Below are positions 30,603 to 62,070 of a stretch of DNA of 64,000 nucleotides, one piece after another. The DNA is taken from the sequence record PP400788, one strand, 5' to 3'. Made by a program: the position numbers and the translations under genes. The first letter of the stretch is position 1. Each line of letters begins with the position of its first letter. The notes below the pieces were generated by a model, which saw nothing but the letters and a program-made list of their open reading frames with translations, searched no databases and was not told the origin of the DNA. The stretch comes from Escherichia phage FL33.

Positions 30603-31445
30603 TTAATCAACTACTATTGGATGAATAGCATTAAACTTATGAAACGCTTCTGATTTTTCTTTGCGCGAAACACACATGCGAAGAACCTTTAATGGCTCAT
30701 CTTCTTCACCCAACGATTTTCTCTTTTCAATATTCGATGTTTTCCAACGAGCTTGCTCTGGAAATTCTCTATTGATTTGCTCAAGCGCTCTATTATGTTT
30801 AGAATTGCTACGAATTGAACTACATCCACCGGGGGCTTGTGCTTTTCCGGATACAACCAGATATTTGAACAAGGCCAAATGCGGATAACCTTGATTAATT
30901 AAATTGAGAAATGCATACATATCTTCGCATAAATCAATTTTTCCATACCCAATTTGTTCTGTTGTAAGTTTTCCAAGGTCATACCATGTATTCGTGAATC
31001 CATATGAATTTTCACGATAATTACCCCAAGATGAAGTAATTTTAAAAATAGGTAGACGAGCATGGCCATGATAATACCCGCAATCCATGGCATCTTCAAC
31101 GTATTGAATCAATTCATAGAACTGTTCACGAGTTAATTGATTAATTTTATCTACGCAGCGACGATCATCTTTCTTTCGCATTGAACTCATACGAATAGTA
31201 GTATCATCATCGATCATCCAAATTCGTTGACCTGCATACATATCAGTAATTGCTTTACGAGTACCGGCAATTCCATTAACATCATCAGGAATAGCTATAA
31301 TTTTAGCTCTAGACCCATAAGCATCATAATAAGCTTTTTCTTCGTGTTCACGCACTACAATATGGGGTTCATAATCAGTCGGAAACATATTAAGGGCAGA
31401 AACTGCCCCGACACGCTGATAACTTGGAATTACGAATTGAATCAT
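30603..31445 (-). CDS. Glycosyltransferase, GT-A/GT2-like (hydroxymethylcytosine sugar transferase candidate)
   Basis: 280 aa; N-terminal VIPSYQRVG and WMIDDD DxD motif; occupies the T4 beta-gt locus but unlike T4 beta-gt. Confidence 0.6.
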   Translation of the reverse strand: MIQFVIPSYQRVGAVSALNMFPTDYEPHIVVREHEEKAYYDAYGSRAKIIAIPDDVNGIAGTRKAITDMYAGQRIWMIDDDTTIRMSSMRKKDDRRCVDKINQLTREQFYELIQYVEDAMDCGYYHGHARLPIFKITSSWGNYRENSYGFTNTWYDLGKLTTEQIGYGKIDLCEDMYAFLNLINQGYPHLALFKYLVVSGKAQAPGGCSSIRSNSKHNRALEQINREFPEQARWKTSNIEKRKSLGEEDEPLKVLRMCVSRKEKSEAFHKFNAIHPIVVD

Positions 31446-32083
31446 TTAAGTGCCTTACATTTGTCAAAATGGTATCTTGTCATATTTGGCCCACGTCCTT
31501 TTAGTCCGCAATGCGGACATATTTTTTCTATCAAATTATGAGGTTTTCCTTTACGATTTTTAGACATCGTTTCTTTAATTATTTTAGCTTTTTCTGCGCC
31601 AAAAATTTCTTCATAAGTTTTACCAGAATTTTCCTTTGCTCGATTTATAATTCCATATGCCTGCTCATTTTTACCATACATTGGATTACCTTCGCCTTTC
31701 ATTCTTTTAGAATGGTCAGGACGCTTAATTCCACGAAAGGCATTTCCACATTTATATCTTTCTTCTGGAGATAGTTTCTTACCGTACATTCCATTTAATT
31801 TGCCCGGAAAACTTCCTCCCCATGCTTCATTCTTTAAATTATATGAATCTGGACAATTAGCAGCATCTAAACAAGTTAAAATAATTTCTTCAACCTGTCT
31901 AAACATTGGTCCTTCATATAATATTTCTTTATTAAAGGATTTTATTCCATATTTCTTTTTAGCATGTTGCCAAACTACACCCGAACCATCATAATTCAGG
32001 TTGTGACCATCATGACTTCCTATATACCACTTTTTAGTTTTAGGATGTTTATACTTATAAACATGTGGCGCATTTACTTCCAT
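31442..32083 (-). mobile_element. Free-standing GIY-YIG homing endonuclease gene (Seg-like)
   Basis: 213 aa; N-terminal VYKYKHPKTKKWYIGS GIY-YIG motif, NUMOD3-like repeats (GKLNGMYGK, GEGNPMYGK), C-terminal CPHCG..C; overlaps gene 42 end and glycosyltransferase start. Confidence 0.7.
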
Positions 32084-32814
32084 TTTCCAGTATAATCCTT
32101 TTTAGCAATATGGGTTTCACCGGTGTTCCACCAATGGTCAACCAAATAAAACTGATTTTCGTACACATGAAGACTTCCAACATTCCATATAATAGAACCT
32201 GCTTTATACTGTCGTGATGGGTCGCCTGCATTCAAATCAGATACTAATTTATCTAGTACGTATTTTTGCCACGCATAATCATTACGATAGCCTGCCCAGC
32301 AGTCATTGCTTCTCATATTAACAACTGCATTGACTTTCTTATCACGAATTAAGTATTGTACTGTATTAGTACACATGAAATCTGACATACCATCTTTATT
32401 GTAGTCAAATTGCATGGATGGACGAGTATAAATCATGATACCACGTCGAGAATCAGGATTTTGACCAAGTTCAGCTAAACACATATCATACTGGGCATAG
32501 TTATCTTCTGACCAGATAGCCCAACCATAATTCGAGTTAATTTCGCCTTTAGAAGATGCTACTTGCTGCCAAATCTTCGGTGTTTCACCCGGAATATCTT
32601 TAACGAACAAGCTTTTAGATTTATACCATTCAAGTTCACGCTGAATGTATTCATCATTAAGAGCGCCAAAAATAAACGGTTCATCTGCTACAAATGATGC
32701 GCCAATAATTTCAATAGTTTTAACACCAGTTTTATCAACTACGAAATCTTTTTCTTTTAATGCAAGCCCCAAATGAAGACGGATTTCTTCAACTGTCATA
32801 GAGTCACTAATCAT
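32074..32814 (-). CDS. 42: dCMP hydroxymethylase gp42
   Basis: 246 aa as T4 gp42; thymidylate-synthase-like fold. Confidence 0.93.
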   Translation of the reverse strand: MISDSMTVEEIRLHLGLALKEKDFVVDKTGVKTIEIIGASFVADEPFIFGALNDEYIQRELEWYKSKSLFVKDIPGETPKIWQQVASSKGEINSNYGWAIWSEDNYAQYDMCLAELGQNPDSRRGIMIYTRPSMQFDYNKDGMSDFMCTNTVQYLIRDKKVNAVVNMRSNDCWAGYRNDYAWQKYVLDKLVSDLNAGDPSRQYKAGSIIWNVGSLHVYENQFYLVDHWWNTGETHIAKKDYTGKWK

Positions 32815-54366: not shown

Positions 54367-55368
54367 TTACTTAATTAACTGTAAAGCTTGTTCAAGACGA
54401 TCCAAGCGATTAACAGATTCTTCCCAAATCCTTTTAGCCTGCTCATATTCTTTCTGCGCTTTATTAGAAATTTCTAGAACTTCTTTATAAGCTTTTTCTA
54501 GTGCAATAACTTCTGGACGAATTTCTACCGATTCACCTGAATCGTCAAGACATTCCATTAGTTCCTCAAGGGTAGTTTCTTCTTTAGGAGTATTCACAAT
54601 TTCATCACATTTTTGTTGGTAAATTTCTTTATCAGTAGGTGAGTACGCACACTTTACTTCACGAAGACTAATTACGAGTTTATATCCTTCCCAGCCGCAT
54701 ATATTCTTAAAAGGATATGTATGAATATTTTCTACTGTTTCCATACAAAGTAATGCGGTCTCTAATTGACGAGTTATAGTGCTAGCAATTGAGAAAAATT
54801 TATTAATATTCTTTTGGTTAGTTTCTGGTGTAAAAAATCCATAATTCACAAAAATAGCTACTTTATTTTTATCAAGTTCATATTCTTTTATGATAATCAT
54901 ATCAGAAGCCAAAGGATGAATTTGACGATAATCGCCATAACATAATTTAGAAGCTGATTTTAGAATTTGCTTCTTAAAAAGTCTGAAATTACTAATCCAA
55001 CGACGAGTAAAAATATTCTCAGGGTCTTCTTTGACAGTAAGATGATAAGAATTAACATCACCGAACCAATTATATCCTACTACATCTTTGGTTCGTTTAA
55101 TTTCTTTCCCAAAATTACCAAGAATATCCCGATTAACCAAATATGAAAGAAGACGAGACTCTTTAAAGGTTTTCTTGATAACATCTTTATCTACACGGCT
55201 AGAAATTTTACGAATTTCATGAATAAATTTAGTAGAAGAAACAATACTTGCATCAACACTATTGAGCCATTGATTGATAATAGAAAGAACGCTATTTTGG
55301 CCAAACACTGGTATAGCTTTATCATCAATAACACTATTGAATGATTTGATATATTCGTTACGAGTCAT
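54367..55368 (-). CDS. Paralog family member 2 (333 aa), C-terminal coiled coil
   Basis: ATG at 55368 (MTRNEYIKSF) downstream of early promoter; shared motif RRWISNFRLFKKQILKSASKL. Confidence 0.65.
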   Translation of the reverse strand: MTRNEYIKSFNSVIDDKAIPVFGQNSVLSIINQWLNSVDASIVSSTKFIHEIRKISSRVDKDVIKKTFKESRLLSYLVNRDILGNFGKEIKRTKDVVGYNWFGDVNSYHLTVKEDPENIFTRRWISNFRLFKKQILKSASKLCYGDYRQIHPLASDMIIIKEYELDKNKVAIFVNYGFFTPETNQKNINKFFSIASTITRQLETALLCMETVENIHTYPFKNICGWEGYKLVISLREVKCAYSPTDKEIYQQKCDEIVNTPKEETTLEELMECLDDSGESVEIRPEVIALEKAYKEVLEISNKAQKEYEQAKRIWEESVNRLDRLEQALQLIK

Positions 55369-55396
55369 ATTAATCTCCTCAGTAGAAAGTAAGAAC

Positions 55397-55425
55397 ATTA
55401 TACCACATCCGTGTGGTAAAGTAAA
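55397..55425 (-). promoter_or_regulatory. Early sigma70-type promoter
   Basis: TTTACT-17bp-TATAAT on minus strand. Confidence 0.55.
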
Positions 55426-56454
55426 CTAGTTCAGTGCATTTAGTGCATTGTTCAGTTTAGAACGTTGCTTCGTGAGATTTTTGACTTTTTCTTGAGCTTT
55501 TTCTAGCATCTTTTCAGCTTCTAACACTTCATTAGTTGCTTTAACGAGTTCATCATCTACTGCTTTAAGAGACTCCTCAATCGCATCTGCATGCCATTTT
55601 TCAACAGGTTTAAGACTCGGATTTTCAATAGGAAGAAAATTCACTTTATTGAATTTCCATGCATCTTTATTACCTGAACTATACATCCAAAATTTAGGAT
55701 CGTTTGATGAGTAATTGGATAAATTTAAATTTAAGTTATCTTGCACTTCCTGCTTTTTCTCTTGCGTGACTTCGTCCTTTCTTAAAAAATCGTATTTAAA
55801 TGAAACGATCATATCAAGTTCATATGTTGTTGTGTCTAATTTAAATCGTTCGAAATGCTTTGAAATCTTAGACTGAACACCAGCAACAACATCCATATAC
55901 TTAAATGCTTCTGTCAACTGTGATTTAAGGCATTCACAAATTGAAAGAGAATTTTTTGTATTAGGTTTAAAGCTAATTCGTGCGGTTCTATTATTTTCTT
56001 TTAATGGTCTTACTTCCATCTGAAGAGTATAACCATCAAATTTCAGATTCTTTAAGTTAATTTCAGAACCTTTTAATCGACTCGCAGTTGATAAAATTTG
56101 CTTTAATTGTCTACGGAACAGAGCAATAAATCTCCATTCAATACGATAATGATTTGGATTGAAAAATCCAGATGATAAATTGACCTTACTTTGACCAACG
56201 CCTTGAACAAATAGAGGATTTTTATAATCAATAGTTTTACAGAAATCGGTGAGCTGCTCACGAGCAGTCATTTGCGTAATATACCCTGCTTTACTAAAAT
56301 TACGCACCCATTCACTGCTATTCAGATATTTAAAGTGATGAATAGCACGATTAACTTTATCAAAGTCTAAATTATTTTCACACAAAAATGTCATAACATC
56401 ACGAGTATCGCTAGCGTTACGAACCATATCTTCAATTTGAGAACGAGTTTTCAT
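55426..56454 (-). CDS. Paralog family member 3 (342 aa), C-terminal coiled coil
   Basis: N-term MKTRSQIEDM; shared motif YRIEWRFIALFRRQLKQILSTASRLK. Confidence 0.65.
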   Translation of the reverse strand: MKTRSQIEDMVRNASDTRDVMTFLCENNLDFDKVNRAIHHFKYLNSSEWVRNFSKAGYITQMTAREQLTDFCKTIDYKNPLFVQGVGQSKVNLSSGFFNPNHYRIEWRFIALFRRQLKQILSTASRLKGSEINLKNLKFDGYTLQMEVRPLKENNRTARISFKPNTKNSLSICECLKSQLTEAFKYMDVVAGVQSKISKHFERFKLDTTTYELDMIVSFKYDFLRKDEVTQEKKQEVQDNLNLNLSNYSSNDPKFWMYSSGNKDAWKFNKVNFLPIENPSLKPVEKWHADAIEESLKAVDDELVKATNEVLEAEKMLEKAQEKVKNLTKQRSKLNNALNALN

Positions 56455-56462
56455 AGTGTTCC

Positions 56463-57353
56463 TTAAGATTTAAGTAAATCAACAATTTTAATTAACTTTT
56501 CACGCTCAGATTTAGCTTTACTACTCAATCCAGATAGTCTGAAAATTTCATCGTCATATTGTTGAATAGAAATATTCAGCTCTTCAATCTGTTTATTAAA
56601 ATAATCAATTTGTTCAGAATGTTTTTCGTTACTACGAACTGGTACAGGTTTCGTAGGCAATTTAGTTGAACTGGATTCATCCGGGCGATAAATTAAAATA
56701 CAACTTGAACCAATAGGGCATTTTGCACCAGATGAATATTCTAATGTTCCAGCTTCTTTTAAAACTTCAAAAGCCAAACAGAGATGATGCCCCATATTAA
56801 CATAATCTGTAGAGCGAGCTCTGATGTAATAATCATCTCCACGAATACTAAATTTAAAGCATTTAAGGTCTTCTGTATTATTGGTCTTAAAAATCATTTG
56901 TTTATCTAGACCTTTAGCTAATCGAGCGCCTAATGCTAATAATCGTCGTTGATTTTCCCACAAATCCGCTATCATTTGATCGAATGATAATTTCGGCATT
57001 AGTCGACCATAAAGGTCATATCCTTTATTATAATTACGAAGGATTTCACTCGCATTAATACGAGACAACGCTCCAATTTTATTAAGGGCTTTCATAATGC
57101 GATTAGATAAACTCATTCCAGACCCATTTGTTCGCTGTAAATGTTTTTCTAATCCAAAGCCAATATCAACTTTAAACTTATCTAAAATTTCGGCATGAAC
57201 ATCTCTGTCAATAACATTCAAATCCAAAGTTGGGTTAAATCTATGAAAAAATTTATCTGGCTCTCCACGACGAAATACAGTCCATTCATTCATCATTTTT
57301 TTATTAACTAAAGATTTAATTACTGCATTGACATTATTAATTACGACTGACAT
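56463..57353 (-). CDS. Paralog family member 4 (296 aa), C-terminal coiled coil
   Basis: ATG at 57353 with GAGG RBS; shared motif WENQRRLLALGARLAKGL. Confidence 0.6.
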   Translation of the reverse strand: MSVVINNVNAVIKSLVNKKMMNEWTVFRRGEPDKFFHRFNPTLDLNVIDRDVHAEILDKFKVDIGFGLEKHLQRTNGSGMSLSNRIMKALNKIGALSRINASEILRNYNKGYDLYGRLMPKLSFDQMIADLWENQRRLLALGARLAKGLDKQMIFKTNNTEDLKCFKFSIRGDDYYIRARSTDYVNMGHHLCLAFEVLKEAGTLEYSSGAKCPIGSSCILIYRPDESSSTKLPTKPVPVRSNEKHSEQIDYFNKQIEELNISIQQYDDEIFRLSGLSSKAKSEREKLIKIVDLLKS

Positions 57354-57360
57354 ATTTTCC

Positions 57361-57768
57361 TCACTCAATTTCAATTTTACTAAATACACAGAATATGATT
57401 GAACAGACTACATAAGCACCGCACACAGATTGAACTAATACCATTCCAAAGAACCAAACAATATTATCAAACAGTGTCTGTTTTACGTCGAAAGGACGTA
57501 AACTTACAGTAATATTATCACCTTTTTCTATTGAAGAATACATCTCTGGGGAAATATATTCACTAAATCTATAACCGTCTTTAAGTTCATATACGGCAAT
57601 AAACGATAAACTAGACCCCTTTCCTTGTGTTCCTGTAATGGTATTAACTACAGTAACATCATAATCTTTATAGTGCATATAATCATTAATAGCATAATAA
57701 CCGTATGCAACTACTACACATAAACAACATATCAATAAATTCAATCTTTTAATTATCAACTGTTTCAT
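57361..57768 (-). CDS. Membrane protein (135 aa)
   Basis: N- and C-terminal hydrophobic helices. Confidence 0.55.
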   Translation of the reverse strand: MKQLIIKRLNLLICCLCVVVAYGYYAINDYMHYKDYDVTVVNTITGTQGKGSSLSFIAVYELKDGYRFSEYISPEMYSSIEKGDNITVSLRPFDVKQTLFDNIVWFFGMVLVQSVCGAYVVCSIIFCVFSKIEIE

Positions 57769-57823: not shown

Positions 57824-58351
57824 TTATGCGAGTACCGTCTTTAACCGTTCTTCAAACTTCCGAAGAGTATTTTGGCGTTCAGCTCTTTGCTTTTTGTAAG
57901 TTTCAATACGCTCTGAAATGAGAGAGTATCGTTCATTTACTGATTCTTTCATAAAATCAGGAATTTCACGAGAAGCTTTAATCTCATCAAATTTATCAAT
58001 AACAGCTTGCTCTTCAGCAATTAAGTTATCATACATTAAAATATCTTTCTTGATGAACTCAATATCTTCTTGAGTTACACGAGATAATTTAGATACTTTA
58101 TCCTTTTTGTACTGTTCGTTAGTATCACGAGACCAGTGCAATGTACGATTTTTATTCGTATTCTTGTAAATTTCTACAATACCAATCTCATCGATAATAA
58201 CGATCCAATTCCAACGGGATTTGTAAATTTGTCCTCCATCAACAGTGATTTCACCTCCGATTGAGATGTCATTAAAGAACTTACTTTGTGCTTCAGATTT
58301 AAATTTACCATCGTTGTAATTTACCAAGTTGAAAATATCTTTAGCGTTCAT
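57824..58351 (-). CDS. Hypothetical protein (175 aa)
   Basis: ORF downstream of early promoter; charged C-terminal helix. Confidence 0.55.
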   Translation of the reverse strand: MNAKDIFNLVNYNDGKFKSEAQSKFFNDISIGGEITVDGGQIYKSRWNWIVIIDEIGIVEIYKNTNKNRTLHWSRDTNEQYKKDKVSKLSRVTQEDIEFIKKDILMYDNLIAEEQAVIDKFDEIKASREIPDFMKESVNERYSLISERIETYKKQRAERQNTLRKFEERLKTVLA

Positions 58352-58379
58352 TTTGTGTTCCTCCGTAGTTGATAGTTGT

Positions 58380-58408
58380 ATAGTACCACAGAGGAACAGT
58401 CTTGTAAA
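58380..58408 (-). promoter_or_regulatory. Early sigma70-type promoter (repeated element)
   Basis: TTTACA-17bp-TACTAT with conserved flanks. Confidence 0.6.
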
Positions 58409-58411
58409 CCA

Positions 58412-58714
58412 CTAAAAGAAACTTCTTTCACAATTTTTTCCACTGAACCATGCGCTTACCGCTTTCTTAGTCTCAGGAGCAGTGTTATCCATAAACCATT
58501 CAAAGGCAGCCTTTTTATGATTCTGGAGGGCTTCTCGGGCTTTAATCTGCTCACGGTCTATTAACACTAACATATGAGCCTTTCTTGTCACCATGGGCTT
58601 CTTATGATTTTTTGAATACTCCCAGTCATTTGTCCATCGCATTGTCGTTGCAAATTGAAATACAGCTTCTTTAATCTTAGTTTCGTAAATTTCACGAGCC
58701 TTTGAGTATAACAT
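58412..58714 (-). CDS. Hypothetical protein (100 aa)
   Basis: ATG at 58714 with GGAGG RBS. Confidence 0.5.
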   Translation of the reverse strand: MLYSKAREIYETKIKEAVFQFATTMRWTNDWEYSKNHKKPMVTRKAHMLVLIDREQIKAREALQNHKKAAFEWFMDNTAPETKKAVSAWFSGKNCERSFF

Positions 58715-58796
58715 CACTACCTCCATTTACCAGTTTAATTCTAGTCATCTTTTTAATGGCAGTCCATATAATCTATTTCTGAACTGCCTTTTTGTC

Positions 58797-59516
58797 TTAG
58801 GATTCTTCTAAATGTCTTTTCTGAAAAGTTGATACCATACTACGATACGGTTCATTTGGATATCCATGTTTTATAGCTTCCTTTGTAAATTTTCTCCATC
58901 CACATTTAGTTTCTTTCCAAAGCTCGAATAATTCATCTTCATACTGCCATATAGTTAAATGAGAACGCTTTGCAGCTTTAATTCCATTAATATGCTTTTC
59001 TTTTACTACAGGATTGCTTAGTTTCTTTTTAATAATATTACTAACTTTTCTAACAAAAACTGGGTCCTTATATCGTTGCGAAGTTTTTATTGAAGTGTTT
59101 AATTTAGCTTCCGGCGTGGATGTGACCTCTTTCATCTTTTTCTTCATATGCTGTATATGATTAGGATTTTTCCATAAATTTATAGAATGCTTTTTGCATT
59201 TTATCCTAGTTTCATCTGCAACCTTTCCTCCTTCACCCCCGTATGACAGGTTAACGCAGTTTTTTCCATATTTCAATTTACCTGCCATGATATATAATAT
59301 TTCGGCTTGTACCATTTTATCATAATTATCAAAAACTTCTAAAACCGTTTTTGATAATATATGGTCATTTGACACTTTTACACGTTCTATATAATTTCCA
59401 CTACCAACATACGAATCATTGATGTTATTAGTTATATGTCGACCATAATAGTATTTCTTAATACCTGTCTTTAAATTTAATATTTCAGTTTTATAGATAG
59501 TAAAATATTTTTTCAT
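58797..59516 (-). CDS. Putative GIY-YIG-like homing endonuclease (candidate mobile gene)
   Basis: 239 aa; N-terminal KKYYYGRH..SYVGSG resembles GIY-x10-YIG; Lys-rich C-terminal half; start overlaps upstream ATPase stop. Confidence 0.45.
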   Translation of the reverse strand: MKKYFTIYKTEILNLKTGIKKYYYGRHITNNINDSYVGSGNYIERVKVSNDHILSKTVLEVFDNYDKMVQAEILYIMAGKLKYGKNCVNLSYGGEGGKVADETRIKCKKHSINLWKNPNHIQHMKKKMKEVTSTPEAKLNTSIKTSQRYKDPVFVRKVSNIIKKKLSNPVVKEKHINGIKAAKRSHLTIWQYEDELFELWKETKCGWRKFTKEAIKHGYPNEPYRSMVSTFQKRHLEES

Positions 59517-60481
59517 TTTAATAATACCGTTTCAGCAATTTCTTCCCAACCGTTTTTGTCGGTCATAATAAAGTCAGCAAGATAAAGAGCAGTACGCAGT
59601 GAAACATTGCGTAAACGATTAACATTAACTTTCATCCATGATAATGCTTTATAAGTTTCTTCATCAGAAAGACCGCGCTTTTGCATCATGTCAGTTGAAA
59701 GAATAACATCTTCAACCCTGACCATAATTTCTTCATTGGTGTGAACACCCAAATCCAAATAAACTGAGCGGGACACTAATGCTTGTAAGTGTGGGGCAAG
59801 TTTAGTACCACGGTCTAATTCGCGGTCAATATCAACGTTTGTGATAAAAACAATCGTTCCTTTAAATTCAAACTCACGGTCAATGCCTTTTTCTTCTAAG
59901 TAAGAAGATGCAGTGCTCCAGCAGACTTTACGGGTCTCTCCAGTGTCCAGAGCGGCTTTTAGAAGATTAAGAATATCCATATCAGAGAAAACATCCACAT
60001 CATCAATCAAAAGGACAGAATTCTCTTCACGATTATTCCAAAGCTGCTCATAAAGACCAATACCAGAGATTTTACCATTAATGCTTTTATATTCAATGTA
60101 TCCAATATCATTTGCTTTATTTAAAGCTTTATCTAAAGAATACGTTTTACCAATACCTGCTGCGCCAGAGATAATTAATGAACGAATATTTCCATTAATA
60201 ATACCATTCGTCATCATTCCCATAACATTAAATCTTTTATTAATGCGGGTTTTCATATCTTCATATGATTCTTTAACTTCTTCAACTTTTACACCATCAT
60301 ATGAAATATCTGATTTGTAAACCCAAACACCACGACGTTTACCGTCAATTTCAACAAAAACTTTACCATCTCCTTGTGCATCTACCGGAGCATTATCTGG
60401 GAACCATTCGCCTAAGAGCTCAAAAGTTCCAGAGATTTCTTTACCGAAGTAGATACCCTTATTGATAGTTACAGTTTTCAT
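59513..60481 (-). CDS. P-loop NTPase (AAA-like ATPase), function unknown
   Basis: 322 aa from ATG at 60481; Walker A GAAGIGKT, Walker B VLLIDDVD; own promoter upstream. Confidence 0.7.
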   Translation of the reverse strand: MKTVTINKGIYFGKEISGTFELLGEWFPDNAPVDAQGDGKVFVEIDGKRRGVWVYKSDISYDGVKVEEVKESYEDMKTRINKRFNVMGMMTNGIINGNIRSLIISGAAGIGKTYSLDKALNKANDIGYIEYKSINGKISGIGLYEQLWNNREENSVLLIDDVDVFSDMDILNLLKAALDTGETRKVCWSTASSYLEEKGIDREFEFKGTIVFITNVDIDRELDRGTKLAPHLQALVSRSVYLDLGVHTNEEIMVRVEDVILSTDMMQKRGLSDEETYKALSWMKVNVNRLRNVSLRTALYLADFIMTDKNGWEEIAETVLLK

Positions 60482-60515
60482 TTTATTCTCCAAATCCGTA
60501 TCAGTTGATAGTTGT

Positions 60516-60544
60516 ATAGTACCATAAAGCTTTATGCTTGTAAA
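60516..60544 (-). promoter_or_regulatory. Early sigma70-type promoter (repeated element)
   Basis: TTTACA-17bp-TACTAT. Confidence 0.6.
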
Positions 60545-60552
60545 CAGTTTTG

Positions 60553-60595
60553 TGAAAAATTTTTGAAATAAAAAAAAGGGAGCCCGAAGGCTCCC
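60553..60595 (-). terminator. Intrinsic terminator after nucleotidyltransferase gene
   Basis: GGGAGCC-UUCG-GGCUCCC hairpin followed by U8 on minus transcript. Confidence 0.7.
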
Positions 60596-60598
60596 TTA

Positions 60599-61612
60599 TC
60601 ATTTATAATAACTTCGGTGGTTTTCAAGATAAACCCTCTCAAGGAAGTCATCCCAGAAACTCATGTCTACTTTTTGCTGCATACCGTTCTTAGAAGCTTC
60701 AATGGATGCTGCTTCTACTTGATCGACCACATCTTCCAAAAACTCTTGGACAGTTTTAAATGGATGTTTACCCAACTTCACGTCGAGAATAAATGGAGCA
60801 TCTTGGAGTGGATAAACCAAATCACCAGTTTTGTAAATTTCCAATAGTTGGAGTCCACCACGGCAAGCATGACTAAGAGCTTTCCAGTCAATGCCCTCAT
60901 TCGCTTCAGCCTTACGAGCACGTTCGCCGTATTCAGCATCTAATTTGTTCAGTGACTGCTTAAGCTCAATAAGAGAAAGCGTTGTCTGATATTTACGACC
61001 CAACACAGTATAGAACGTTTGCGGGCCTGTTTTCTCGTGATTATGGAACACCCATTCACAGAACTCGTTCTCTGGAAGACGATGCTTAATATCTTCAACT
61101 TTAGTGCGACGCTGCTTAATGGAACCGTCTTCTTGATAATCAACCCACTGATCGGGGATTTGATTAACTACTTTCAATACATCACGCAATGCGGCCAAAC
61201 GAGAACCCTTAACACCATATTTAGAAGCTTGCTTGCGAACATATCCTAAATAGGATTTCATGTTAGTTGTATAAAAACGAGAACGATTGTCTTGAATAAA
61301 CTTCCATACATCAGGCAAATCTGATTTAACTACCAGTTCAGGTGGAGTATGGAGCATATCCAATGCTACGGTTTCACCATCTGCTGCTAATTTAAAGAAA
61401 TATTTAAGACTGTATAGTTCATGGTCAATATCATCTTTAGTGTTTTTAGATGATGTGTTGTTAGTGTTTTTACTCATATGCTCTTTAACATTTCCGATAA
61501 GAATATCGCGAGCAGGAGGAACAAAGATTTCTTTAAAATCTACATCAGATTCTGGAGTAGAAGTTCCATAAAGATGACTACCAAAATAGCTTTTCATTAC
61601 TGTTTTCATCAT
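60599..61612 (-). CDS. Pol-beta-superfamily nucleotidyltransferase, function unknown
   Basis: 337 aa; N-terminal FGSHLYGTSTPESDVDF (GS-x9-SDxD) NTase signature with later ALDMLH acidic strand; ATG overlaps stop of upstream membrane-protein gene. Confidence 0.7.
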   Translation of the reverse strand: MMKTVMKSYFGSHLYGTSTPESDVDFKEIFVPPARDILIGNVKEHMSKNTNNTSSKNTKDDIDHELYSLKYFFKLAADGETVALDMLHTPPELVVKSDLPDVWKFIQDNRSRFYTTNMKSYLGYVRKQASKYGVKGSRLAALRDVLKVVNQIPDQWVDYQEDGSIKQRRTKVEDIKHRLPENEFCEWVFHNHEKTGPQTFYTVLGRKYQTTLSLIELKQSLNKLDAEYGERARKAEANEGIDWKALSHACRGGLQLLEIYKTGDLVYPLQDAPFILDVKLGKHPFKTVQEFLEDVVDQVEAASIEASKNGMQQKVDMSFWDDFLERVYLENHRSYYK

Positions 61613-62070
61613 TCAGCCTTATATTCAATAACAGGACATACTTTAGCTTTACGAGCTTTTAAAAATTCGACGATAATAGATTTCTTGGGTTGAATAGGAG
61701 GTAAACCTTTATACGCCCTATCAATATTTTCTACATGTAAAGCATAATCCTTTTTCCATTTATAATCTTTATATTTTTCATGCAGTTGTGCAGGAATAAC
61801 ACATGAACCGATAATAAGTAAAACAAGCAAAATAGCAAGTATAAATGCTGATGGAATAAGAGTCCATAAACTACCAAAAATAAGCCATTTCTGTATGATT
61901 TCTGCACAGATGATAGTTAGACCTGCGAGTATAGTACATCCGAAAAAAGAAACGAAAAATGTAGGAATAACAATAGACCAAAAATACGCGCACAGTGTCT
62001 TAGGTCGTTTCCATTCATCATTAAACATTTTGAATAATTTATAATGCCAAGAGTTTTCATTAATAATCAT
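61609..62070 (-). CDS. Multi-pass membrane protein (153 aa)
   Basis: Two long hydrophobic stretches and a basic C-terminal tail; stop overlaps NTase start (ATGATGA). Confidence 0.6.
   Translation of the reverse strand: MIINENSWHYKLFKMFNDEWKRPKTLCAYFWSIVIPTFFVSFFGCTILAGLTIICAEIIQKWLIFGSLWTLIPSAFILAILLVLLIIGSCVIPAQLHEKYKDYKWKKDYALHVENIDRAYKGLPPIQPKKSIIVEFLKARKAKVCPVIEYKAE

Follow-up and report, generated by a model that had tools for sequence, protein, structure and literature searches.

A Seg-like GIY-YIG homing endonuclease gene predicted between nrdC.10 and nrdC.9 in Escherichia phage FL33 and other T-even phages

A number of T4-like phages carry, between the accessory genes nrdC.10 and nrdC.9, a gene that is already known at the level of annotation, having been listed since the RB32 record (DQ904452) as RB32ORF093c, 'putative site-specific intron-like DNA endonuclease; similar to seg'. 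The same gene is annotated in T6 and FL34, and in AR1 and RB68 it bears the label 'segE'. That label is a misnomer, since T4 segE lies between inh and uvsW (PMC2988022) and the T4 protein matched by the gene product is SegB. Table 5 of PMC2993671, which gives counts of seg-like genes for RB32 and T6, presumably includes the orthologue. Here we analyzed the copy found in a 64,000-nucleotide (nt) stretch of Escherichia phage FL33 (sequence record PP400788; hereafter the window), where the open reading frame (ORF) listing and the raw sequence give 239 codons with an ATG start on the minus strand, at positions 58797–59516. Compared with RB32ORF093c and its orthologues in T6, RB14, RB51, RB33, AR1, and FL34, it is the same gene (98–100% amino acid (aa) identity), located at the same nrdC.9/nrdC.10 site with the same 4-nt overlap with nrdC.10, and no difference of substance was found.

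The sequence places the protein close to the phage endonucleases SegB and SegH, with another C-terminal module. With T4 SegB it shares the signature YIG-x-H-x-T-x4-D-x-Y-x-G-S-G, the catalytic Glu and Asn residues, and an architecture in which a Gly-rich linker leads to a Lys-rich C-terminal half made of helices. By contrast, the segB gene resides in the tRNA gene cluster, and its product has a different C-terminal end, without the W..ELF.LW...GYP module of the ORF protein. SegB also has its own upstream promoter (PMC2988022), whereas the ORF appears promoter-less and translationally coupled. SegH, which according to the citation of Sandegren et al. (2005) in PMC13096335 takes the place of mobC in the nrdD/nrdG interval of T4-related phages such as PP01, resembles the ORF in overlapping both the end of its upstream gene (nrdD) and the start of its downstream gene, and its product likewise fails to match PF01541. 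However, a clear NUMOD3 motif is found in SegH together with a C-terminal DNA-binding domain of the I-TevI type; neither was detectable in the ORF protein. The more distant I-TevI (PDB 1LN0) is encoded within the td intron of T4, whereas the ORF is free-standing; relative to I-TevI, the ORF protein is without helix alpha1 and its Arg27, the zinc finger, and the I-TevI DNA-binding domain, and its beta-hairpin is four residues longer.

We consider it probable, with good confidence, that the ORF encodes a free-standing, Seg-type GIY-YIG homing endonuclease, its activity being a prediction. Its length of 239 codons in an AT-rich genome, together with hundreds of homologues, indicates that it is not a chance ORF. 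PHROG 314, 'homing endonuclease', matched the whole protein (E 5.6e-30), and tblastn aligned residues 21–186 with T4 SegB (27.5% identity, E 1e-5) and residues 1–151 with SegH of PP01-type phages (31% identity, E 1e-6). An exhaustive phmmer search returned 1436 relatives at E ≤ 1e-3; a word-indexed homologue search gave 2 matches only, and the exhaustive HMMER search was needed to recover this number. A family alignment of 48 sequences was built from 46 relatives, the ORF protein itself, SegB, and SegH. E72 and N89 were invariant in all 48, and Y8, Y23, and G25 were conserved in at least 90%, the complete set of invariant or near-invariant positions comprising Y8, Y23, G25, H27, T29, D34, Y36, G38, S39, G40, E72, N89, G93, and G94. 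The Seg signature H-x-T-x4-D-x-Y-x-G-S-G is conserved in the ORF protein. Comparison of the family profile with the I-TevI catalytic domain using hhalign gave an E value of 5e-5 over 82 columns, pairing Y8 with Y6, Y23-Y24-G25 with Y17-V18-G19, E72 with the catalytic, metal-binding Glu E75, and N89 with the structural Asn N90; two stretches of the I-TevI sequence used were confirmed by the PDB profile search. A Foldseek search against viral models returned Seg-like endonucleases, including T4 P04523, listed as 'DNA replication protein', which we take to be gp69/SegF. Agreement of PHROG matching, transitive homology, profile-profile comparison, and fold comparison makes the assignment to the GIY-YIG family secure at the level of sequence and model, despite the failure of curated profiles discussed below.

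The N-terminus of the protein reads MKKYFTIYKTEILNLKTGIKKYYYGRHITNNINDSYVGSGNY..., with KKYYYGRH at residues 20–27 and SYVGSG at residues 35–40, and by direct reading about one residue in 4–5 is Lys over residues 98–185. These elements, and the call of a GIY-YIG-like endonuclease based on them, were put forward in a preliminary description made from the sequence alone, and both hold. The register of the motifs had to be corrected: KKYYYGRH contains the YIG element rather than GIY, and SYVGSG, downstream of YIG, is the DxYxGSG signature of the Seg family. GIY corresponds to T6-I7-Y8 and YIG to Y23-Y24-G25, both placed by the alignment, hhalign, and AlphaFold2 (AF2) on the strands of a predicted beta-hairpin. 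The spacer between the two is 14 residues, compared with the canonical 10–11, because of a 4-residue insertion in the hairpin. The AF2 model, computed from a 60-sequence alignment, had a mean predicted local distance difference test score (pLDDT) of 94.3. Its N-terminal part follows the order beta(4–14)-beta(20–29)-alpha(41–47)-beta(52–62)-alpha(65–86), which is the alpha/beta sandwich fold of the GIY-YIG catalytic domain, and structure prediction, suggested earlier as a check, thus favored the nuclease assignment.

The nuclease domain is followed by a Gly-rich linker, YGGEGGK, where the pLDDT falls to 74, and beyond it the model is entirely helical, with helices at residues 101–116, 118–132, 135–150, 152–166, and 169–185 (about 17 aa each). 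A recurring (N/D/T)P-x3-K pattern in these helices resembles the NUMOD3-bearing region of relatives, the ORF protein itself having no NUMOD3 match, and from sequence and model these four to five repeats are probably degenerate NUMOD3-like DNA-contact repeats. The C-terminal three-helix module, as modeled, shows a conserved sequence pattern (Table 1) and is presumed to be a sequence-specific DNA-binding domain. The three-helix unit also occurs in 2–3 tandem copies behind a Seg-type N-terminus in the metagenomic relatives P0007, P0012, P0018, P0050, and P0099, for which a Pfam scan gave no significant family, suggesting that the ~50-aa unit W..ELF.LW...GYP..Y..MV..F may be a candidate for an undescribed nuclease-associated DNA-binding module.

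FL33 is a Tequatrovirus (T4-like phage), and a megablast search of phage records showed its region 58300–60600 to be 100% identical to Escherichia phage FL34 and 97.6–98.8% identical to the other matched Tequatrovirus records, including RB32, T6, RB14, RB51, and AR1. The gene order in RB32 is nrdC.11, nrdC.10, RB32ORF093c, nrdC.9, nrdC.8. In T4 (T4T record), nrdC.10 is followed directly by nrdC.9 with no intervening gene, and the 15 endonuclease sites listed for T4 in PMC2988022 do not include this one; the synteny comparison with T4 therefore agreed with the earlier impression that its position differs from those of the T4 set. The upstream neighbor is a P-loop protein of 322/326 aa corresponding to T4 nrdC.10 (RB32 and T4T annotation), with a full-length match to PHROG 1250 and weak Pfam AAA/P-loop matches. 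As noted in the preliminary description, the start of the ORF overlaps the stop of this gene: at an ATGA junction, the ATG (59516–59514) and the nrdC.10 TGA (59515–59513) form the 4-nt overlap. The genes nrdC.10 and nrdC.9 and the ORF between them are all on the minus strand, and the ORF is free-standing, outside any intron or intein.

Next, the limits of the inserted segment were determined from BLAST breakpoints (q949/q1681) against five gene-lacking genomes and from a base-level junction alignment. The carriers used were this phage, RB32, T6, AR1, RB3, and JE01, and the non-carriers T4T, RB18, slur02, UFV13, and PinkRuby. A global MAFFT alignment with T4 across the insertion misaligned the right junction and was replaced by the BLAST breakpoints and separate flank alignments. 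The cassette so defined (Table 1) had identical junctions in 6/6 carriers examined, all at precisely the same nrdC.10/nrdC.9 position. On the coding strand, with slashes marking the junctions, the empty site reads ...GAAGAAATTGCTGAG / GTTACTCTTCTGAAATAATTCATAAGAGGACTT / CTAAGACAAAAAGGCAG..., and the occupied site reads ...GAAGAAATTGCTGAA / ACGGTATTATTAAAATGAAAAAATAT...TTAGAAGAATC / CTAAGACAAAAAGGCAG.... The cassette supplies its own last five nrdC.10 codons and stop codon, 11 of 18 nt differing from the empty-site version, (GA)G GTT ACT CTT CTG AAA TAA, and the nrdC.10 peptide accordingly ends in ...AETVLLK in carriers and ...AEVTLLK at empty sites. All fixed differences between carriers and non-carriers were within 58801–59531, except for one multi-allelic site at 60752. 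Directly downstream of the cassette, in the spacer before nrdC.9, lies a conserved hairpin, an element of the phage backbone that T4 shares; its sequence is essentially unchanged across the carriers and non-carriers compared, with one substitution in RB3, and since no T-run follows, it is not a classical terminator.

The distribution of the cassette was examined with a nucleotide probe and with the protein. The empty site was present in 435 of 502 records (301-bp T4 empty-site probe matching over at least 80% of its length), T4 being among the empty-site phages, and 66 records encode the endonuclease protein at ≥90% identity, so that about 13% of sequenced T-even-type phages carry the cassette. 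T4_ev151 is a carrier. Pairwise identity among six carriers was 98.9% for the cassette, compared with 97.7% and 97.2% for the flanks on the nrdC.10 and nrdC.9 sides, respectively. The 1.4 kb on each side contained 133 and 125 polymorphic sites, of which 0 and 1 (multi-allelic) separated carriers from non-carriers. No flank polymorphisms linked to carriage, as pointers to a distant cleavage site, were found within ±1.4 kb in the 11 genomes. The flanks were as similar within carriers (97.5%/97.1% identity) as they were across the two groups (97.4%/97.1% for carriers against non-carriers), with nearest neighbors interleaved.

The ORF was uninterrupted in 57 of the 60 best records. The AR1 copy (L006, 1719–2216) is truncated to 165 aa by a 1-nt deletion, and the RB3/RB10 copies (RB3: L007, 1801–2527) are split in two by a 7-nt insertion just past the GGEGG linker. 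Natural decay may account for these frameshifts, although the single-base change in AR1 could instead be a sequencing error. Comparison of five intact copies gave 13 variable codons, 9 of them synonymous, and the gene is probably still functional. The population pattern as a whole is the signature expected of a free-standing homing endonuclease gene, and is consistent with horizontal spread, a function that is mostly kept, and occasional decay. Other phages have relatives at 25–46% identity in different intergenic positions, adjoining tk, uvsY, or an nrdA fragment. Outside Tequatrovirus, the nearest relative (46% full-length identity) is in Klebsiella phage vB_Kpn_AM_K4 (L013, 2501–3208), a 289-kb phage, where it directly follows a 273-nt ORF annotated as the nrdA fragment 'nrdA_3'. 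Its position suggests an endonuclease-associated split or intron in nrdA.

The cassette has no evident expression signals of its own. A strong intrinsic terminator in the nrdC.11/nrdC.10 spacer defines the start of the nrdC.10 transcription unit, and the sigma-70-like promoter predicted upstream of nrdC.10 (Table 1) is the likely source of the transcript carrying the ORF. Between this promoter and the start of the ORF, no terminator-like site was found other than a weak 5-bp stem inside nrdC.10 (60347–60333). Searches for the T4 late promoter TATAAATA within the region near the ORF gave no match, and a search for an ORF-specific promoter yielded generic sigma-70-like matches inside the ORF only, at a density similar to that of shuffled sequence. 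No Shine-Dalgarno sequence occurs in the 20 nt preceding the ATG, and no significant RNA structure hiding the start codon was predicted (z −1.0). The lack of an own promoter and Shine-Dalgarno sequence and the ATGA overlap suggest that the cassette is probably read from the nrdC.10 early transcript, with translation of the ORF, presumably at a low level, by stop-start coupling to nrdC.10. Promoter-less free-standing cassettes are common in T4, as in the cases of segC, segF, segG, and several mob genes (PMC2988022), and the ORF looks like a further example.

Based on these features, a homing mechanism can be proposed. The C-terminal helical repeats and three-helix module would bind an extended, asymmetric stretch of DNA, close to which the tethered GIY-YIG domain would make a staggered double-strand cut. 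The characterized Seg enzymes, like I-TevI, produce 2-nt 3' overhangs. During mixed infection, genomes that lack the cassette would be cut by the enzyme, and T4-type double-strand-break repair would then copy the cassette from the carrier genome. The ~35 bp replaced by the cassette (3' end of nrdC.10 and spacer) are the only consistent difference between carriers and non-carriers within ±1.4 kb. For this reason, and because it offers the simplest route to carrier immunity, a target spanning the empty insertion site is an attractive proposal, to which we give at best an even chance; it would depart from the distant cleavage that is usual for Seg enzymes (PMC2988022). Carriers would then be immune through splitting of the site and recoding of the last five nrdC.10 codons, and the double-strand break may occur in or near ...GCTGAGGTTACTCTTCTGAAATAATTCATAAGAGGACTTCTAAGAC... 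of the empty-site allele.

Several points weigh against parts of this interpretation. Scans of the ORF protein against Pfam (E ≤ 1) and NCBIfam gave no match, including none to PF01541, PF19835, or NUMOD3, and searches of PDB sequences, whether queried with the ORF protein or with the 48-sequence profile, returned nothing significant, I-TevI appearing at just E 1.6. These failures would suit an unrelated Lys-rich DNA- or RNA-binding protein whose YYYG...YVGSG likeness to nucleases is coincidental, an explanation that we regard as scarcely credible and as effectively refuted already, among other things by the hhalign match to I-TevI (E 5e-5). Among the 48 aligned members, PF19835 (SegE_GIY-YIG) matched 20, PF01541 (GIY-YIG) 14, and NUMOD3 14. 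SegB passes PF01541; SegH has no PF01541 match and remains below the cut-off for PF19835. As SegH is also missed, the curated profiles under-cover the Seg clade, and the Pfam miss is no evidence against membership; had it been used for refutation, as the preliminary description proposed for the GIY-YIG profiles, the family call would have been wrongly rejected. With respect to the active site, helix alpha1 of I-TevI with R27, the catalytic Arg of motif B, falls in a gap of the hhalign alignment, and the AF2 model has a loop there (residues 30–40). R26 and R45 are present in the ORF protein and are not conserved in the family, and H27 is nearly invariant. The 48-sequence alignment revealed the same arrangement around the motif B Arg position in SegB, and it is Seg-clade-wide. 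Nuclease activity of SegB has been demonstrated, so that the gap is no argument for inactivity of the ORF protein, whose active site is mapped in part. The DNA-binding role of the C-terminal half is based on weak fold similarity, and a literature search found no activity, target, or homing data for the ORF protein or its RB32ORF093c orthologues. Regarding the target, cleavage by free-standing endonucleases often occurs hundreds of bp or farther from the endonuclease gene (PMC2988022), which makes the insertion site as target a reading drawn from 11 genomes, and the rampant recombination of T-even phages could by itself erase linkage in the flanks.

The lack of a recognizable counterpart of the canonical catalytic Arg would also fit an inactive relic, that is, a decaying gene kept only since losing it would upset the nrdC.10 end or nrdC.9 expression. 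Such a relic would be in keeping with the absence of a ribosome-binding site and with the AR1 and RB3/RB10 frameshifts, which had no apparent harm for those phages. However, the 239-codon ORF is intact in nearly all of the best records (57/60), most variable codons are synonymous (9/13), the family-invariant residues are all retained, and the cassette is less diverged than its flanks, suggesting recent spread instead of old decay, and we therefore consider a relic very unlikely. Less remote, though still improbable in our judgment, is a Seg-like nuclease that does not home at this site and serves the phage through marker exclusion, by cutting the genomes of competitors, or through recombination or amplification of accessory or anti-defense genes, as has been reported of T6 SegB. 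T6 SegB promotes amplification of anti-defense loci in cis and in trans, including gp49.1–nrdC.1 of the same cluster (PMC13096335), the ORF is located in the hypervariable nrdC/mobD region with other indels nearby, and the purifying selection on it is compatible with a benefit to the phage. By contrast, presence or absence at a single site, conservation above that of the flanks, and occasional decay are what plain homing predicts, and carriage in just ~13% of genomes argues against a strong general benefit. The homing endonuclease thus remains our preferred interpretation. Its bolder extensions should be taken as tentative and, on balance, somewhat doubtful: that the enzyme targets its own empty site with the recoded codons as an immunity patch, that its C-terminal module is an undescribed one, and, boldest, that SegB-like breaks drive recombination and amplification in the nrdC cluster.

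The window also contains a second Seg-like ORF of 213 aa (31442–32083, minus strand), presumably the first endonuclease candidate of the preliminary description. It is located between a gene for beta-glucosyl-HMC-alpha-glucosyltransferase (30603–31445, minus strand; PHROG 842, E 1.8e-88) and gene 42 (32074–32814), overlapping both; T4 segA, unlike this ORF, is located at uvsX/beta-gt. The second ORF matched PHROG 314 (E 5.6e-31), the Seg profile built here (E 2e-12), and weakly NUMOD3, has a CxxC...HxxxC zinc-finger-like motif at its C-terminus, and shares 24% identity with the protein encoded at 58797–59516. The neighboring glucosyltransferase presumably stands for the T2/T6-type sugar modification and not for the T4 beta-gt.

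Further presence/absence variation was observed around nrdC.10. At 61609–62070 (minus strand), a 153-aa membrane-protein ORF (PHROG 944) occupies the position after nrdC.11 where T4 has the HNH endonuclease gene mobD; the RB32 record annotates it as 'replaces mobD', and it represents a second presence/absence site 2 kb from the endonuclease ORF. JE01 (L008, 3253–3662) and PinkRuby (L012, 2677–3025) have an additional insertion of ~0.4–0.5 kb in the nrdC.10/nrdC.11 spacer, holding two small ORFs, which suggests that this spacer, with its terminator and promoter, is a further indel hot spot. On the other side, three consecutive ORFs of 308–343 aa (54367–57389, minus strand) correspond to nrdC.4, nrdC.5, and nrdC.6 in T4 nomenclature and look paralogous, with similar lengths and coiled-coil-like C-termini.

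Table 1. Coordinates of the features described, in positions of the 64,000-nt window of phage FL33
Feature	Position	Strand	Remarks
Predicted Seg-like GIY-YIG homing endonuclease gene	58797..59516	(-)	239 aa + stop; RB32ORF093c orthologue
N-terminal GIY-YIG catalytic domain (predicted), ~residues 1–95	59232..59516	(-)	Y8, Y23-Y24-G25, H27, D34/Y36/G38-S39-G40, E72, N89
Lys-rich helical repeat region, residues ~101–185	58962..59216	(-)	AF2 helices; (N/D/T)P-x3-K pattern
C-terminal three-helix module, residues 187–238	58803..58958	(-)	W-x2-3-ELF-x-LW ... F-x3-A-x3-GYP-x3-Y-x2-MV-x2-F
Carrier-specific cassette, 731 bp	58801..59531	(-)	replaces 34–37 bp in phages without the gene
Recoded nrdC.10 3' end within the cassette	59513..59531	(-)	(GA)A ACG GTA TTA TTA AAA TGA
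nrdC.10, AAA-type P-loop protein, upstream neighbor	59513..60481	(-)	weak Pfam AAA; PHROG 1250
Conserved 9-bp hairpin, GGCAGUUCA...UGGACUGCC	58758..58788	(-)	−17 kcal/mol, z −4.1
Sigma-70-like promoter upstream of nrdC.10 (putative)	60516..60544	(-)	TTTACA-17-TACTAT, extended −10 TG; consensus scan only
Strong intrinsic terminator, nrdC.11/nrdC.10 spacer	60576..60597	(-)	9-bp stem, 6 GC pairs, T-run

Our analysis firms up the existing annotation of this gene by fold and profile evidence where curated profiles fail, and cautions that part of the Seg clade goes unrecognized by the Pfam GIY-YIG profiles. The cassette and its junctions are resolved to the single nucleotide, leaving the ~35 bp at the empty site as a predicted, testable target. 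The reported role of SegB in amplification in T6 (PMC13096335) leaves room for a phage-beneficial role of the ORF. If characterized, the protein would be one more site-specific GIY-YIG nuclease acting on glucosyl-hydroxymethylcytosine DNA, and its gene would be one more marker-exclusion locus in T-even crosses.

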